From a virus (Duplodnaviria > Heunggongvirae > Uroviricota > Caudoviricetes), in IMG/VR virus record IMGVR_UViG_3300039329_000118: DNA of 8,369 bases. One strand, given 5' to 3'. Positions 1,248-7,722 of the stretch are shown one piece after another. The notes under the pieces were generated by a model. The model had not been told where the DNA came from, ran no database searches, and saw only the letters and a list, made by a program, of their open reading frames with translations. Numbering within the stretch: the first letter of the stretch is position 1; every line of letters begins with the position of its first letter. The position numbers and the translations under genes were made by a program.

Positions 1248-1667
1248 CTATGATGCGTTTTGTGCTTTCTTTTTACGGATTTCTTCGTAGATCATATTGT
1301 AATACTGTTTTTTCTCTTCAAGAGTTTTTAATAATTTATCCGCTTCACTTTCTGGCAGTTCGTCTAAGAGATCTAAAAAAATACGTTGTCGTGGCGTTAG
1401 AACCCTTGTTTCATAACTGGAGGCTGTGTTCGTTGATGATGAAACGATACCATCCATCCATCCCCGGGGTAACCCAAAGGACTCTTCGATAATCTCCACC
1501 ATATCATCAGCGATCCGTTTTTTTCCCTTTTTCCCCTCTGGGTACAACATTCTTGATACATAAGAAGGCTCGCGCCCGATCTTTCTGGCCACGTTAACCG
1601 CTTTACCATCGCATTTCTCATCACGAATTTTGATGAGTTGCTGTCGTCTAAATTCATATTTGTCCAT
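1248..1667 (-). CDS. prophage repressor, CI-like HTH protein without a recognisable S24 autoprotease domain
   Basis: 139-aa ORF divergent from a cro-like gene. N-terminal HTH-like segment (KAVNVARKIGREPSYVSRML). Too short for a LexA-like Ser/Lys peptidase domain and no such motif seen. Flanked by palindromic operators. No SD before the ATG at 1667, so it may be translated from a leaderless or short-leader transcript, as lambda cI is from PRM. Confidence 0.7.
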   Translation of the reverse strand: MDKYEFRRQQLIKIRDEKCDGKAVNVARKIGREPSYVSRMLYPEGKKGKKRIADDMVEIIEESFGLPRGWMDGIVSSSTNTASSYETRVLTPRQRIFLDLLDELPESEADKLLKTLEEKKQYYNMIYEEIRKKKAQNAS

Positions 1668-2458: not shown

Positions 2459-2529
2459 CTGACAATAGCCATATCGAATCGCTTCCGGCAACTCGTGAGT
2501 AAAAAGATTCGGTATCAGAAGAGGTGAGT

Positions 2530-3600
2530 ATGGCTAACGCCTGGCTCAGATTATGGCATGACATGCCAAATGACCCTAAGTGGCGAACAATTGCCAGGGT
2601 GTCAGGGCAGCCAATTGCAACAGTGATGGCAGTGTATATCCACCTCCTGGTGAGTGCGTCACGAAATGTCACGCGAGGTCACATTGATGTCACGACAGAA
2701 GATTTGGCAAGTGCGCTCGACGTGACAGAAGAGGTAATTGATTCAATTTTGCAGACGATGCAGGGGCGGGTACTTGATGGTGATTTAATCACTGGATGGG
2801 AAAAACGCCAGGTGCTTAAAGAGGACAACGGCAATATTTCGCAAACCGCAAAATCTCCTGCAGAGCGCAAGAGGGCGCAGCGAGAGAGGGAAAGAAAGCG
2901 GGAACAAAATGGCGATTGTCACGGCGCGTCACGAAATGTCACGCACATGTCACGACGAGTCACGACAGATAAAGATACAGATAAAGATACAGATCAAGAA
3001 GATCAAAACACTATGGTCCATGGCGTAAAAAACGCCACGAACCAGGCAGGGGATGTTCAGACCGTCAATCCTGGTCAGCCAGCAGGCACGACACCGGAAG
3101 CCGATTCAGCGTATGCGCTGAAAGCCGATTCGGGCGCTGTGCAGCAGGTGATGACCCCAAGGCCGGAGCAATCACACCAACTGCAGCAGCCTGAAGCCGA
3201 TTCCGCCATTCAGCGGAAAGCCGATCGGGTAGTCCCGGAAAACACCGGGCTGTCTGTGGGACGAGTGGATTATCCGGATGCGTTCGAACAGGTCTGGCGG
3301 GAGTACCCGTTGCGTGCCGGAGCAAACCCGAAGAAATCCGCTTTCAGTGCCTGGAAGGCCAGATTACGCGAGGGGGTGCCACCAGAGGCCATGCTGGATG
3401 GCGTGAGGCGTTACGCAAGATACTTGGCGGCTACCGGGAAAACGGGAACGGAATTTGTTCAGCGAGCGACGACGTTTTTTGGACCGGACCGGAATTTTGA
3501 GAACCCCTGGTTGCTCCCGGTAAGCGGCACGAACAACCAGCGTTGTGTGAATCATATTTCTGAACCGGATAACGAAATTCCGCCGGGCTTCAGGGGGTAA
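2530..3600 (+). CDS. phage replication initiation protein (O-like / replisome organiser) with internal origin repeats
   Basis: ORF-track 2524..3600 (GTG start). I prefer the ATG at 2530 with AGAGG 6 nt upstream. Sits in the replication-module position after cro/YdaT-like genes. Contains two iteron clusters and an AT-rich tandem repeat within the coding sequence, giving repeated peptide motifs (SRNVT...VTT twice, DKDTDKDTD). The C-terminal ~120 aa is a distinct region of unknown fold. Confidence 0.65.
   Translation: MANAWLRLWHDMPNDPKWRTIARVSGQPIATVMAVYIHLLVSASRNVTRGHIDVTTEDLASALDVTEEVIDSILQTMQGRVLDGDLITGWEKRQVLKEDNGNISQTAKSPAERKRAQRERERKREQNGDCHGASRNVTHMSRRVTTDKDTDKDTDQEDQNTMVHGVKNATNQAGDVQTVNPGQPAGTTPEADSAYALKADSGAVQQVMTPRPEQSHQLQQPEADSAIQRKADRVVPENTGLSVGRVDYPDAFEQVWREYPLRAGANPKKSAFSAWKARLREGVPPEAMLDGVRRYARYLAATGKTGTEFVQRATTFFGPDRNFENPWLLPVSGTNNQRCVNHISEPDNEIPPGFRG
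2656..2694. repeat. iteron cluster A: four GTCAC(G/A) repeats at 10-11 bp phasing
   Basis: GTCACG at 2658, 2668, 2689 and GTCACA at 2678 (start positions). The 19-mer GCGTCACGAAATGTCACGC (2656..2674) recurs exactly at 2926..2944. Confidence 0.55.
2918..3010. repeat. iteron cluster B (five GTCACG repeats) plus adjacent AT-rich tandem repeat: candidate origin of replication
   Basis: GTCACG starting at 2918, 2928, 2938, 2949, 2959 (10-11 bp phasing), followed by two perfect tandem copies of GATAAAGATACA (2968..2979, 2980..2991) and a degenerate third. This mirrors the iterons-plus-AT-rich layout of lambda ori inside gene O. Confidence 0.55.
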
Positions 3601-4209: not shown

Positions 4210-5019
4210 TCACTTAATTATTGGATAACTCACACAAGTATGACCGTTGCTTATCGCATACATTTGGTTTCCCTTAAGATTTACAAATGGAAATGTCGTA
4301 TACTCATAATTTATAGAGGTCATATTAAATGTAAGGAATTTATCCTCAAGTTCTAATTTTGTAGAGTGGGCAGGGTATGTTCCTTCATTTTTCATTGTGA
4401 TAATAAAACCGATAGGAAAAAAATGTAAAGCACAAATAAATGCCACATGTCCTTCGTTCATAAATGCTACACTTTGAGCGGATATGTGCATTCTGTGTGG
4501 GTAAAACCAGTAGTAAATATCATGAGTTTCCTCAAAACTTGAATTTTTACCCAAAACATAATCCTTTAAAGGTGTATAGAAGGGGCTATCTACGGGTTCT
4601 TTTTTACAATCTTCAACTGAAGTTGCTGATAGCACGTGCCCAATCATAGCCTTAGTGAAAGATATGCTATCAAAAGGTATTCTAATGAATGGATATACAT
4701 TCATACCATTCATATATCGACTTAACTGTTCTTTAAAGGACTTTGTTACATTTTCAATTGCAACATCGAGCCCACCTAATACCTTATTGTTACAGTGGCT
4801 GCAAATGGTTCTGAAATAAGAGCCATTTTTAGCATTTAATGGTTTAACTGGTTCCTGAATACCAAAAAATTCGCTAACTGTTTTCTGCAAAACAGGGCCT
4901 AAGGTTATGGCGCACTTTGGAGGAACATGATCTTTTGTGAGCAAGCCATATTTCCCACAAATATTGCAATAACCTTCAGTAATGCCATTGTGCTTCCATC
5001 GTTCACTAATTTTCGTCAT
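4210..5019 (-). CDS. HNH (His-Me finger) nuclease-motif protein with an uncharacterised C-terminal domain
   Basis: 269-aa ORF in markedly AT-rich DNA, opposite in orientation to the flanking phage genes. N-terminal motif C-N-I-C-G-(x7)-D-H-V-P-P-K ... N ... C-S-H-C-N-N-K fits the HNH pattern (CxxC, [D/E]H, N, CxxC). SD-like GAGGGA about 6 nt upstream of the ATG on the minus strand. About 180 C-terminal residues unrecognised. Confidence 0.75.
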   Translation of the reverse strand: MTKISERWKHNGITEGYCNICGKYGLLTKDHVPPKCAITLGPVLQKTVSEFFGIQEPVKPLNAKNGSYFRTICSHCNNKVLGGLDVAIENVTKSFKEQLSRYMNGMNVYPFIRIPFDSISFTKAMIGHVLSATSVEDCKKEPVDSPFYTPLKDYVLGKNSSFEETHDIYYWFYPHRMHISAQSVAFMNEGHVAFICALHFFPIGFIITMKNEGTYPAHSTKLELEDKFLTFNMTSINYEYTTFPFVNLKGNQMYAISNGHTCVSYPIIK

Positions 5020-5139
5020 TTTTATTCCCTCAGTAGCATAAGCTATCTATACGTTTTTTAATCCTATCAAAGATACAACTTAACGTCAGGAAAATGATAG
5101 TGTTTATCTAAGTAATACAATTAACTTCAACGCGTGACA

Positions 5140-5163
5140 GTCTGCTTTTCGCTCAAAGCGGAC
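5140..5163. other. GC-rich hairpin upstream of the HNH gene, related to the hairpin at 4132..4155
   Basis: GTCTGCTTTTCGCTCAAAGCGGAC; its reverse complement matches 4132..4155 at 20 of 24 positions, and 18 of 24 in direct orientation because both are near-palindromic. Together they bracket the HNH gene. Confidence 0.35.
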
Positions 5164-5643
5164 TAGAAGGTTAGCTTGCGTCGGACTTGGCGTATTTAAA
5201 GAAGTGCTGGTGGTGACTGGTTGTTGTGTTCCATTTCTACAGAACAAAATCACAGAAACTATACCCAATAGTTGTATCTCATCAATGATGAGACAGCCTC
5301 ATATTTATCAGAACTGGTGTACGTCCAATACAGGAGGTTGTCGTGCTGGTTCTCAAATGTGCGCTGGCTATTGCTGCTGTAATGGCAATTTATTGCCTTG
5401 CTGTTGTTCTTATGGATCGCCTTTCTGATTGATTTTATATTGGCGAGGTGACGTGAGTTAAGTAGAATTGCTGCGGGTGCTTGAGGCTATCTGTCTCAGG
5501 CATGAACACCAAAGGCAGATAGAGAAAAGCCCCAGTTAACATTACGCGTCCTGCAAGACGCTTAACATTAATCTGAGGCTCAATCTATGAACGGCAAATC
5601 TAGGTTAGCCTCTTACGTGCCGAAAGGCAAGGAGAAGCAGGCT

Positions 5644-5799
5644 ATGAAGCAGCAAAAGGCGATGTTAATCGCCCTGATCGTCATCTGTTTAACCGTCATT
5701 GTGACGGCACTGGTAACGAGGAAAGACCTCTGCGAGGTACGAATCCGAACCGGCCAGACGGAGGTCGCTGTCTTCACAGCTTACGAACCTGAGGAGTAA
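5644..5799 (+). CDS. hokD: Hok/Gef family type I toxin (HokD/RelF-like small membrane peptide)
   Basis: Translation MKQQKAMLIALIVICLTVIVTALVTRKDLCEVRIRTGQTEVAVFTAYEPEE (51 aa) has the Hok/Gef layout: hydrophobic transmembrane segment then conserved C-terminal tail. It matches my recollection of E. coli HokD/RelF closely; the symbol is from memory. SD AAGGAG at 5629..5634. The ORF track's 70-aa frame (from ATG 5587) is an in-frame upstream extension. Confidence 0.85.
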   Translation: MKQQKAMLIALIVICLTVIVTALVTRKDLCEVRIRTGQTEVAVFTAYEPEE

Positions 5800-5868
5800 G
5801 AGACCTGGCGGGGGAGAAATCCCTCGCCACCTCTGATGAGTCAGGCATCCTCAATGCACCCGCGCTTA

Positions 5869-5888
5869 ACCCGCTTCGGCGGGTTTTT
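5869..5888 (+). terminator. rho-independent terminator of the hok transcript
   Basis: Stem ACCCGC (5869..5874), UUCG tetraloop (5875..5878), stem GCGGGT (5879..5884), followed by T-run to 5888. About 70 nt after the hok stop. Confidence 0.75.
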
Positions 5889-5903
5889 CTAGCATCTATC
5901 TGG

Positions 5904-5965: not shown

Positions 5966-6580
5966 ATGCAGAATTTATCTCAACAGTTGTTAGAAGCATA
6001 TGACAAGGAGTGCCGCAAAGAGCTTTCGATCGCGTTAGCACAGGCTTATCTTCATTCGCATATGAAGGCAAAAGAGTTTGGTTCTTTTTGGGCTCAAGCA
6101 CAGTCATATTTGCGCTGGTTTTATGCCGATGCATTGCTTGAGAATGCGGCTAAGCGTGTGGGGCTGGATTTTGAAGTCGGTAGCAATGCTGCTAAAAATT
6201 GTAAACACATTGCGATTCACTCGAACAACTGGAAAATGACGGCACATCATTTATCGGGTAATGCGCCACTTCCTAAGCAGGCATTGTATAGAGCTGTTTA
6301 CGCTAATCAAAATTATGAATTGAATTTTGGGGATGAAAATGCCGACTCCCTGGATGGGAGAGCGTCTGGTGGACATGTTTATATGTTACATGATGGCAGT
6401 AATCAGCACTTGTCCAAACTGAATTTAACTGTTCCTTCTTCGGATAATTACGGGATTCTTTATACTGAGTCTTTACCAATTATGACGATGGTAGAAGTTG
6501 AAGCAGAAAATGTGGATTCTGAGATTGAAGATAAAATCAAGATTCTTACCGAACAAATAATTAAATCACAGCAATCATGA
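5966..6580 (+). CDS. hypothetical protein, first gene of the two-gene operon (candidate effector/toxin partner of the HTH-peptidase)
   Basis: 204-aa ORF, AT-rich. Stop overlaps the next gene's start (ATGA at 6577..6580), implying translational coupling. No motif I can recognise; acidic C-terminal tail. Confidence 0.7.
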   Translation: MQNLSQQLLEAYDKECRKELSIALAQAYLHSHMKAKEFGSFWAQAQSYLRWFYADALLENAAKRVGLDFEVGSNAAKNCKHIAIHSNNWKMTAHHLSGNAPLPKQALYRAVYANQNYELNFGDENADSLDGRASGGHVYMLHDGSNQHLSKLNLTVPSSDNYGILYTESLPIMTMVEVEAENVDSEIEDKIKILTEQIIKSQQS

Positions 6581-7722
6581 GCATGAATATCGCACAAACA
6601 CCATTTACTGATAAATCGTTTAATCCTCGTCGCCTTGAGGAGGCAAGAGAGGCAAAAGGGTTGACGATGGCTGAACTTGCCAGAGTGCTCAATATTTCAA
6701 GACAAGCTATTTCGTCATTTGAGAAGGGGTTGAAGTCTCCCTCTGCTGATACACTTTCTGCAATAGCCAAGGTGTTAGGATTTCCAGAACGATTTTTCTT
6801 AGCCTCCAGTGCTTCTCCATCTCTGGAGGGGGCGATTCATTTTAGAAGTCGTTCAACTGCGACCAAAAAGGCTCGAGTTACAGGGAAAACACGTGGGCGT
6901 TGGGCGGCATTAATATTGGATGAATGTCTAAAATATGCTCAATTACCAGATGTGGTTCTGCCTGAATTCGATATTATTGATTTTGAGGTTCTGTCTCTAT
7001 CTGATATTGAGGATATGTCCACCCAATTAAGGCGTTTTTGGGGGTTAGGTGATGGTCCAATACTCAATTTAACTAGACTTGTTGAAAATAAAGGAATCGT
7101 GGTTTCTCATTTACCTTCTGGTGAGAAAGTTGATGCCTTTTCGTTCTGGCATAATGGGCGGCCTTTAATTATGTTAGATAGCTCGAAGACGGCTGTTCGC
7201 ATGCGATTTAGTCTTGCTCATGAACTTGGCCATTTAATTATGCATAGGGCAGTGGAGGATGACTACCTGAATGATAAAGAATTATTCGACCTAGTGGAGT
7301 TGCAGGCCGATTATTTTGCCTCCAGCTTTTTAATGCCAGCCACGACTTTCGGGCGTGAATTTTATAGTCCAAATTTATCAGCGTTAGAACGATTAAAACT
7401 ACGTTGGATTACATCTATCGGTAGTATTGCCATGAGGAGTCATAGCCTTAAGTTAATTAGCGATAATCAGAAAAGCTATATATTTAAGCAATTAGCGCCA
7501 TTCCATCGTAGGGAGCCGTTAGATGATGCAATCCCAAAAGAAGAGCCTGAGTTACTTAATAAGTTACTTTTACTTCTTGATAAGCATTCAATCATAAAGG
7601 TAACTGAGTTAACTGATATCTTTGCTCTTCCTTTAAATGAGTTATCTGCAATTACACGATTTAAAGAATCAGATATGATTCATTCTGACAATGTTATTTC
7701 ATTTACCATAAAACAAAAATAA
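6577..7722 (+). CDS. XRE-family HTH fused to an ImmA/IrrE-type (COG2856 / M78-like) zinc metallopeptidase domain
   Basis: 381-aa ORF. N-terminal Cro/C1-type HTH (LTMAELARVLNISRQAISSFEKG). Central HEXXH zinc-binding motif (SLAHELGHLIMH) with the downstream acidic/aromatic segment (ELQADYFASSFLMP) typical of ImmA/IrrE peptidases. Coupled to the upstream gene and followed by a terminator. Confidence 0.85.
   Translation: MSMNIAQTPFTDKSFNPRRLEEAREAKGLTMAELARVLNISRQAISSFEKGLKSPSADTLSAIAKVLGFPERFFLASSASPSLEGAIHFRSRSTATKKARVTGKTRGRWAALILDECLKYAQLPDVVLPEFDIIDFEVLSLSDIEDMSTQLRRFWGLGDGPILNLTRLVENKGIVVSHLPSGEKVDAFSFWHNGRPLIMLDSSKTAVRMRFSLAHELGHLIMHRAVEDDYLNDKELFDLVELQADYFASSFLMPATTFGREFYSPNLSALERLKLRWITSIGSIAMRSHSLKLISDNQKSYIFKQLAPFHRREPLDDAIPKEEPELLNKLLLLLDKHSIIKVTELTDIFALPLNELSAITRFKESDMIHSDNVISFTIKQK

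Follow-up and report, generated by a model that had tools for sequence, protein, structure and literature searches.

The window examined here, 8,369 nt of phage DNA in all, very probably carries at positions 5440..5888 a complete and intact hok/mok/sok type I cassette of the hokD/hokW subgroup that would act by the standard mechanism, a reading that rests on sequence comparison and on analogy with characterised relatives. All of the elements of such a module were found, including both promoters, the module contained no IS element, frameshift or truncation, and no sequence feature spoke against this reading. The features are as follows.

5440..5468, plus strand: promoter of the hok/mok mRNA (−35 TTGGCG at 5440-5445, 17-nt spacer, −10 TAGAAT at 5463-5468)
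5475..5888, plus strand: full-length hok mRNA (about 414 nt), predicted to start with GGGUGCUUGAGG and to end in the U run of the terminator
5475..5486, plus strand: tac (translational activator element) at the mRNA 5′ end, conserved in R1-type hok, hokC and hokW
5525..5595, minus strand (read from 5595 to 5525): predicted 71-nt Sok antisense RNA, coordinates transferred from the annotated sokW of 933W
5527..5533, plus strand: ucb (anti-SD box, AAGCCCC), of which AGCCCC is invariant in the four-locus alignment
5575..5578, plus strand: mok Shine–Dalgarno (SD) sequence GAGG, read from the sequence, 8 nt before ATG 5587
5587..5799, plus strand: mok reading frame (70 aa), which is in the hok frame and ends at the hok stop codon
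5602..5630, minus strand: Sok promoter (−35 TTGCCT at 5630-5625, 17-nt spacer, −10 TAACCT at 5607-5602)
5607..5612, plus strand: dcb (AGCCUC), partner of the mok SD region in the trimmed fold, a pairing that matches the third stem of the Rfam model
5630..5634, plus strand: hok SD sequence AGGAG, read from the sequence
5644..5799, plus strand: hok toxin gene, 51 aa with one transmembrane helix, Cys15 and Cys30
5849..5861, plus strand: fbi (fold-back inhibitory element, CCUCAAUGCACCC), which pairs with tac in the minimum free energy (MFE) fold and is conserved in 933W and K-12 hokD
5868..5888, plus strand: intrinsic terminator AACCCGC-UUCG-GCGGGUU (7-bp stem, UUCG loop, U run)

The identity of the toxin gene was established from its product. 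The hok ORF, which in the ORF list of the window extends from ATG 5644 to a stop codon at 5797-5799, matched Pfam HOK_GEF (PF01848) with an E value of 1.2e-23 (82.9 bits against a cut-off of 22) and PHROG 251, 'MokW-like host killing', at 2.8e-33. The peptide is identical to K-12 HokD (RelF) at 51 of 51 residues. An NCBIfam Hok subfamily model derived from a different Hok subgroup reached 48.5 bits, short of its strict cut-off (73), and a PADLOC search returned no model matching Hok. The segment containing the hok SD, CAAGGAGAAG, was invariant in all four loci that were aligned (the window, 933W, an R1-type plasmid locus and hokC). Assignment as a Hok/Gef type I toxin locus is supported by these results, as the original prediction had proposed for the 51-aa peptide starting at 5644. 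That prediction had also drawn attention to an in-frame ATG at 5587 with its own SD, giving a 70-aa extended form, and to a UUCG-loop terminator after hok, and it had placed the leader and an antisense regulator within 5430..5650. The ORF list and the GAGG 8 nt upstream bear out the first of these, the MFE fold and identity with K-12 hokD the second, and the Rfam match and 933W homology described below the third, in this last case at the sequence level. Alignment of the leader to characterised hok/sok loci, a step that the original prediction had suggested, located the Sok promoter, the mok frame and the fold-back elements.

The hok promoter is sigma-70-like, with 9 of 12 consensus matches in a consensus scan, and its −10 element and the start region are the same in the window, 933W hokW and LF82. 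The site puts the probable mRNA start at about 5475, with the conserved tac sequence GGGUGCUUGAGG. A scan of the whole window against Rfam gave a single above-threshold match, RF01794 ('sok'), at 5475..5649 on the plus strand (110 bits, gathering score 59, E = 5e-25). This match, well outside chance expectation, spans the full model, positions 1-157, and begins 7 nt past the promoter −10. With the same model, 933W hokW scored 113.5, K-12 hokC 118.3 and R1-type plasmid hok 87.2 bits, and no leader match was obtained in the K-12 relBE-hokD region. The possibility that the plus-strand match is the Sok gene itself was rejected. As the K-12 hokC match falls on the strand that carries hokC and mokC, with the annotated sokC on the other, the model describes the hok mRNA leader, and Sok must therefore be the complement of part of that leader. 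Several sub-threshold Rfam matches (isrK at 5808..5889 with 26 bits versus 50, ceN48, a clpP intron and ZEB2_AS1) were set aside as chance or as generic hairpin-plus-terminator resemblance.

Within the leader, the GAGGC sequence at the mok SD was invariant among the window, 933W, R1-type and hokC loci, and the mok product was 89% identical to the annotated MokW of 933W. In-frame mok is found as well in MokW itself (70 aa), in MokC (69 aa) and in the upstream frame of the R1-type locus (71 aa). We considered, and rejected, the notion that mok of R1 does not share the hok frame, the R1-type locus having an in-frame ATG 57 nt before hok. As all three of these frames read into hok, an in-frame mok is the normal arrangement and no peculiarity of the window. 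The 70-aa extended form is, by this comparison, the mok leader frame as annotated for mokW (933W) and mokC (K-12).

Coordinates for mok, hok and Sok were carried over from 933W through a gap-free alignment, so that the predicted Sok ends are those of the annotation. The position obtained in this way agrees with annotated K-12 sokC, which starts at the corresponding site, 6 nt beyond the ATG of mok. The predicted Sok has sequence complementarity to both the SD and the start codon of mok. Its fold (−30 kcal/mol, z = −5.6) leaves 14 nt single-stranded as a 5′ tail, followed by a long hairpin and then a tail of U residues, an architecture that it has in common with SokW and SokC. The Sok promoter has exactly the sequence of the sokW promoter, which has been validated by experiment; the window and 933W are the same throughout 5602..5646. 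The promoter-less sokW construct described in Table 2 of PMC8621323 was made with primer YO-421, which changes TAGGTTAG to CCGGCTCG; this change falls in the Sok −10 hexamer, converting TAACCT to GAGCCG. A simple promoter scan of the minus strand over 5596..5640 did not list the Sok promoter because TAACCT matches the −10 consensus at only 3 of 6 positions. The promoter is a weak consensus match and was placed by its identity to sokW and by the published mutagenic primer. From these comparisons the window is predicted to encode a cis-encoded antisense Sok that has its own promoter and covers the mok SD and start.

Folding of the mRNA yielded two conformations. The predicted MFE structure of the full-length transcript (5475..5888) had a free energy of −172.3 kcal/mol (z = −7.7 versus shuffles) with the 5′ and 3′ ends paired. 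In both the MFE and the centroid structures tac (5475-5486) is predicted to pair with fbi (5849-5861) through 12 bp with one bulged U, while ucb (about 5528-5533) is predicted to pair with the mok SD. The trimmed mRNA was modelled as 5475..5849, i.e. with fbi and the terminator removed, and gave a predicted −146 kcal/mol (z = −6.2). In this form tac is predicted to pair with ucb at 5527..5533, and the mok SD region (5575..5580) with dcb (5607..5612), which would generate the Sok-target hairpin. The R1 hok mRNA is described as passing from a closed state with tac/fbi and ucb/SD pairing to an open state with tac/ucb and SD/dcb pairing (PMC9841398), and the two modelled folds of the window transcript are predicted to reproduce this published switch. 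What supports the folds is that they agree with both the published model and the covariance model. In addition, a compensatory change in the tac/fbi helix was read from the alignment, a U4-A pair in the window corresponding to a C-G pair in the R1-type locus. The UUCG terminator forms in the MFE fold and is identical in K-12 hokD and LF82. A simple terminator scan did not list this hairpin even though folding shows it, a miss that probably reflects the inclusion of two of the T's in the stem.

By analogy with R1 hok/sok and hokW-sokW, the cassette would operate as follows. The constitutive promoter at 5440..5468 would give rise to a stable mRNA of about 414 nt in which 5′ tac and 3′ fbi are paired and the mok SD is held by ucb, and this locked full-length form would be neither translated nor bound by Sok. 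Slow 3′ trimming would remove the terminator and fbi, and the trimmed RNA would then refold to form the tac/ucb stem and the SD/dcb target hairpin. Short-lived Sok, transcribed from 5595 to 5525 under the control of the promoter at 5630..5602, would pair with the mok translation-initiation region, and the resulting Sok–mok duplex would be cut by RNase III. If Sok were no longer replenished, mok would be translated, opening the in-frame hok start, and the 51-aa Hok peptide would insert into the inner membrane such that the cell is killed or depolarised. Possible triggers of a Sok shortage are loss of the element, shut-off of host transcription and prophage induction.

Whereas the sequence analysis shows the presence, integrity and homology of every element and the two predicted RNA conformations, we infer expression, toxicity and biological role. 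The closest guide is hokW-sokW, an experimentally demonstrated functional type I TA system in which HokW is toxic and is neutralised by sokW expressed from its own promoter, with contributions from RNase III and Hfq (PMC8621323). The window module has 93% identical DNA, and by homology its Hok would be toxic and its Sok would neutralise that toxicity. Once the prophage with hokW-sokW is induced, Sok is lost, HokW builds up in the inner membrane and about twice as much phage is released (PMC8621323). This nearest homologue lends most support to a role in retaining the prophage or, as for hokW, in assisting lysis and release. A literature summary reports that the chromosomal loci hokA, hokB and hokC do not mediate post-segregational killing, so that intactness of the window module is no proof of that particular role.

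The genomic surroundings bear on this question. The window corresponds to the early region of a lambdoid prophage, with, in this order, a cI-like repressor gene (1248..1667, minus strand), a cro-like gene, a CII-like/YdaT gene, a replication initiator gene (2524..3600) and a DUF977 gene. A gene for a 269-aa protein without assigned function (4210..5019, minus strand) precedes the hok module. Directly downstream of hok, PADLOC identified matches to RmrT (7.5e-10) and RmrA (5.5e-102), which constitute a RosmerTA defence pair. A tRNA search of the window found none. No relB- or relE-like ORF is present upstream of hok in 5020..5440, where a 74-aa ORF had no Pfam match and the next gene lies on the opposite strand; this part of the original prediction therefore holds. 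Its further suggestion that hok is in a different context was correct insofar as relBE is absent, unlike in K-12. The slot itself is the same Qin-like lambdoid one and hence not unusual. The LF82 prophage and phage Tritos have the same gene order as the window, continuing to ydfU and the Q antiterminator, and the K-12 Qin order hokD-rem-ydfU-ydfT matches this continuation. As the order is shared by LF82, Tritos and K-12 Qin, we conclude that the hok context is the usual slot rather than a new one. The contents just upstream of hok vary (the 269-aa protein in the window, an FRG-domain protein in LF82), as does the module boundary, homology to 933W starting at about 5455, inside the promoter, and homology to LF82 about 310 bp further upstream. 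On the best explanation, 5440..5888 is a moron within the early (replication-to-Q) part of a lambdoid prophage of the Qin/Tritos type.

In view of the RosmerTA neighbour, phage exclusion by the module is possible. The stronger proposal, that the intact module serves mainly as abortive-infection defence within an island that includes RosmerTA, and not in prophage maintenance or lysis assistance, could draw on the adjacent RmrT and RmrA genes, on the variable cargo in the upstream slot and on work cited in PMC8621323 in which a high-copy plasmid with R1 hok/sok lowered T4 plating by 42%. However, the closest tested homologue, hokW-sokW, was set off by RecA-dependent induction and increased the release of the phage that carries it (PMC8621323), and among the 44,248 Hok homologues catalogued in a survey enrichment was seen in prophages but not beside defence systems (bioRxiv 10.1101/2025.08.07.668861). 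We consider a mainly defensive function unlikely.

A second alternative concerns the toxin, namely that the 70-aa product starting at 5587 is itself functional as an N-terminally extended Hok and not a mere coupling leader. Here, as in mokW, mokC and the R1-type locus, mok and hok share their frame and stop codon, so that translation initiated at 5587 always yields a 70-mer containing Hok. Nevertheless, hok has its own invariant SD, K-12 HokD and HokW are annotated as 51-aa peptides, and 51-aa HokW expressed alone from pBAD24-hokW was toxic (PMC8621323). The Mok N-terminus is also poorly conserved (MNGKS versus MLNTC), which suits constraint at the RNA level rather than at the protein level. 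Taken with these observations, an extended toxin appears distinctly improbable, and the 51-aa peptide from 5644 is retained as the toxin.

That the cassette is a decayed or silent remnant, with the hok ORF kept and a truncated or rearranged leader so that it neither kills nor is regulated, has a precedent in K-12 hokD and draws on reports, in the literature summary mentioned above, of chromosomal hok loci inactive in post-segregational killing, but was rejected as extremely improbable given the full-length window leader, the K-12 hokD control without an Rfam match, the presence of both promoters, mok, fbi and the terminator, and 93% identity across the whole module to active hokW-sokW (PMC8621323). 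A truncated or rearranged leader, one of the findings that the original prediction had named as telling against it, was not seen.

The intact cassette is widespread. When 5430..5900 was searched against 5426 complete E. coli genomes, matches were found in 4942, at a median of 2 places per genome and up to 10. Copies covering at least 80% of this segment, annotated hokD, occurred in 3926 of the 5426, and an exact 45-nt segment around the mok start in 1627. The copies in phage Tritos and the LF82 prophage are 99.4% identical to the window module, and the hokW modules of 933W, VT2-Sakai and other Stx phages are 93% identical. As near-identical full-length copies are present in most sequenced E. 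coli genomes, the module is real but ordinary. None of the complete E. coli genomes covered at least 80% of the entire 8.4-kb window; the prophage is a mosaic of common pieces.

One small stretch of the module does set it apart. The Sok 5′ tail is GCCGUUCAUAGAUU in the window, compared to GUUCAGCAUGGAUU in SokW and GUUCAGCAUAUAGG in SokC; between identical flanks, the window departs from SokW and SokC in this tail and in mok codons 2-5. The difference may set pairing specificity, but this Sok-target variant is very common, the 1627 genomes above having an exact match to it, and it could be useful for studying Sok specificity or cross-talk. A bolder, combined proposal is that the tail defines a separate, non-cross-reacting class and that read-through on induction, colliding with the convergent Sok promoter, turns Hok on. 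The hok cassette lies inside the rightward early operon and is read in its direction, after cro and the replication genes. We think it doubtful that both parts of this proposal hold. If they did, a separate Sok specificity class would allow several hok/sok modules to coexist in one cell, and the read-through collision would account for the loss of Sok on induction reported for hokW-sokW.

The module is of an already known kind that the original prediction had read correctly. RefSeq labels the hokD CDS only, and the locus deserves annotation as a complete hok/mok/sok module with the Sok RNA and the promoters, its surroundings being a prophage cargo slot that includes the RosmerTA defence pair. 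Beyond correct annotation the module matters little.

The closest characterised homologue is hokW/mokW/sokW, found in Stx2 phage 933W and in Sakai prophage Sp5, with 93% nucleotide identity over 417 nt, the same order of elements, a 70-aa in-frame mok, a 71-nt Sok with an extended hairpin, and an identical Sok promoter and hok SD region. The 933W module differs in mok codons 2-5 and the Sok 5′ tail (GCCGUUCAU versus GUUCAGCAU), in four C-terminal Hok residues, in the −35 region and everything upstream of it, and in the terminator. It is also located at the far end of the 933W genome beside late or tail genes, whereas the window module is in the early region.

K-12 Qin hokD (relF) shares with the window the entire Hok peptide, the hok SD, the 3′ UTR with fbi and the terminator, as well as the prophage family and slot, with ydfU and ydfT(Q) downstream. 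In K-12, however, relB-relE lies immediately upstream, and the hok promoter, tac, ucb, mok and the Sok gene with its promoter, all of which are present in the window, are missing. In the alignment, K-12 homology to the window starts only at about 5631, at the hok SD, with relE directly upstream, and the K-12 relBE-hokD locus is therefore a rearranged form and not the reference. The window has no relE in place of leader, mok and Sok. Judged by this alignment, K-12 relBE-hokD, having lost its leader, is the exception, a degenerate form.

The hokC(gef)/mokC/sokC locus of K-12 resembles the window in its in-frame 69-aa mokC, in an antisense sokC overlapping the mok start, in conserved tac, ucb, SD and hok SD boxes, and in its Rfam leader match of 118 bits. 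In contrast to the window module it is chromosomal and outside a prophage, IS186 just downstream removes the 3′ region in K-12, and it lacks an insertion (about 18 nt) that makes the Sok hairpin longer in the window module and in hokW.

R1 hok/sok (parB) and its IncF relatives are the prototype for the mechanism, with tac/fbi and ucb/dcb pairing, mok coupling, Sok and RNase III (PMC9841398). The boxes of the R1-type locus can be aligned with those of the window, the covariance model scoring 87 bits, although a figure in PMC8621323 shows only 44% amino-acid identity between HokW and R1 Hok. Unlike the window module, the R1-type locus is plasmid-borne and contains a different insertion between tac and ucb, and the demonstrated role of R1 hok/sok is plasmid post-segregational killing.

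The genes closest to the hok/mok/sok toxin–antitoxin module (5440–5888) are the following:

4210–5019, minus strand: gene for a 269-aa protein, sole match PHROG 21495 (function unknown)
5343–5432, plus strand: ORF of 29 codons, not annotated, starting with GTG and preceded by the Shine–Dalgarno sequence AGGAGG at 5334–5339
5966–6580, plus strand: RmrT-matching gene (PADLOC RosmerTA, 7.5e-10)
6577–7722, plus strand: RmrA-matching gene (PADLOC RosmerTA, 5.5e-102)

The last two, which overlap by 4 nt, are the next genes 3' of hok, and both match the anti-phage system RosmerTA according to PADLOC. RmrA is a protein with an XRE-HTH and an M78/ImmA peptidase. The RmrT/RmrA pair is likewise found 3' of hokD in the LF82 prophage and phage Tritos. 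The slot of the 269-aa gene is occupied in these two by a gene for an FRG-domain protein. The 269-aa protein contains the cysteine motifs CNICG... and CSHCNN; searches of Pfam, NCBIfam and PADLOC returned nothing for it. Its gene was found in only 141 of 5426 complete E. coli genomes, and 29 of the 149 matching places in that search were plasmid-borne. This gene looks like variable cargo. Elsewhere in the window, a run of 30 Ns (masked or unresolved bases) at 1057–1086 separates ORFs of the minus strand, upstream of the cI-like repressor gene.

The 29-codon ORF lies immediately 5' of the hok promoter (5440–5468) and specifies the hydrophobic peptide VLVLKCALAIAAVMAIYCLAVVLMDRLSD. It is intact and occupies the same position in phages Tritos, Evi, mEp460_ev081 and HannyBb, where the peptide is 82–100% identical in amino acid sequence and the substitutions are exclusively conservative. 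The 933W module has no counterpart of this ORF, and the peptide had no match in Pfam, NCBIfam, PADLOC or PHROGs. The ORF may be a gene for a small membrane protein.

Within hok, codon 47 (TAC) is followed by G, giving a UACG motif (5782–5785, plus strand) that is retained in both the window and 933W. TadA-mediated A-to-I editing of the hokC, hokD and hokE mRNAs, converting a Tyr codon numbered 46 to Cys, is described in a preprint (bioRxiv 10.1101/2025.08.07.668861); judged by position, the UACG motif appears to be this edited site. Further downstream, the Rfam model of isrK, a prophage sRNA of Salmonella, gives a match below threshold at 5808–5889 on the plus strand (26 bits; gathering score, 50). 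This match overlaps hairpins and the terminator of the hok 3' UTR, and probably reflects a generic hairpin-plus-terminator resemblance.

Mok codons 2–5 (5590–5601, plus strand), the equivalent of the 5' tail of the predicted antisense RNA Sok, read AACGGCAAATCT in the window versus CTGAACACATGT, a difference from both 933W and K-12 hokC. In the same comparison the flanking leader, unlike these codons, is identical. The exact variant of the window is present in 1627 of the 5426 genomes and may set Sok specificity. The leader also differs in length from the Rfam consensus:

5545–5562, plus strand: insertion of ~18 nt that lengthens the second leader hairpin

The Sok hairpin is therefore longer as well, and the predicted Sok of the window is 71 nt versus 59 nt for SokC. 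The insertion is shared with hokW of 933W, whereas hokC and the R1-type plasmid loci are without it.
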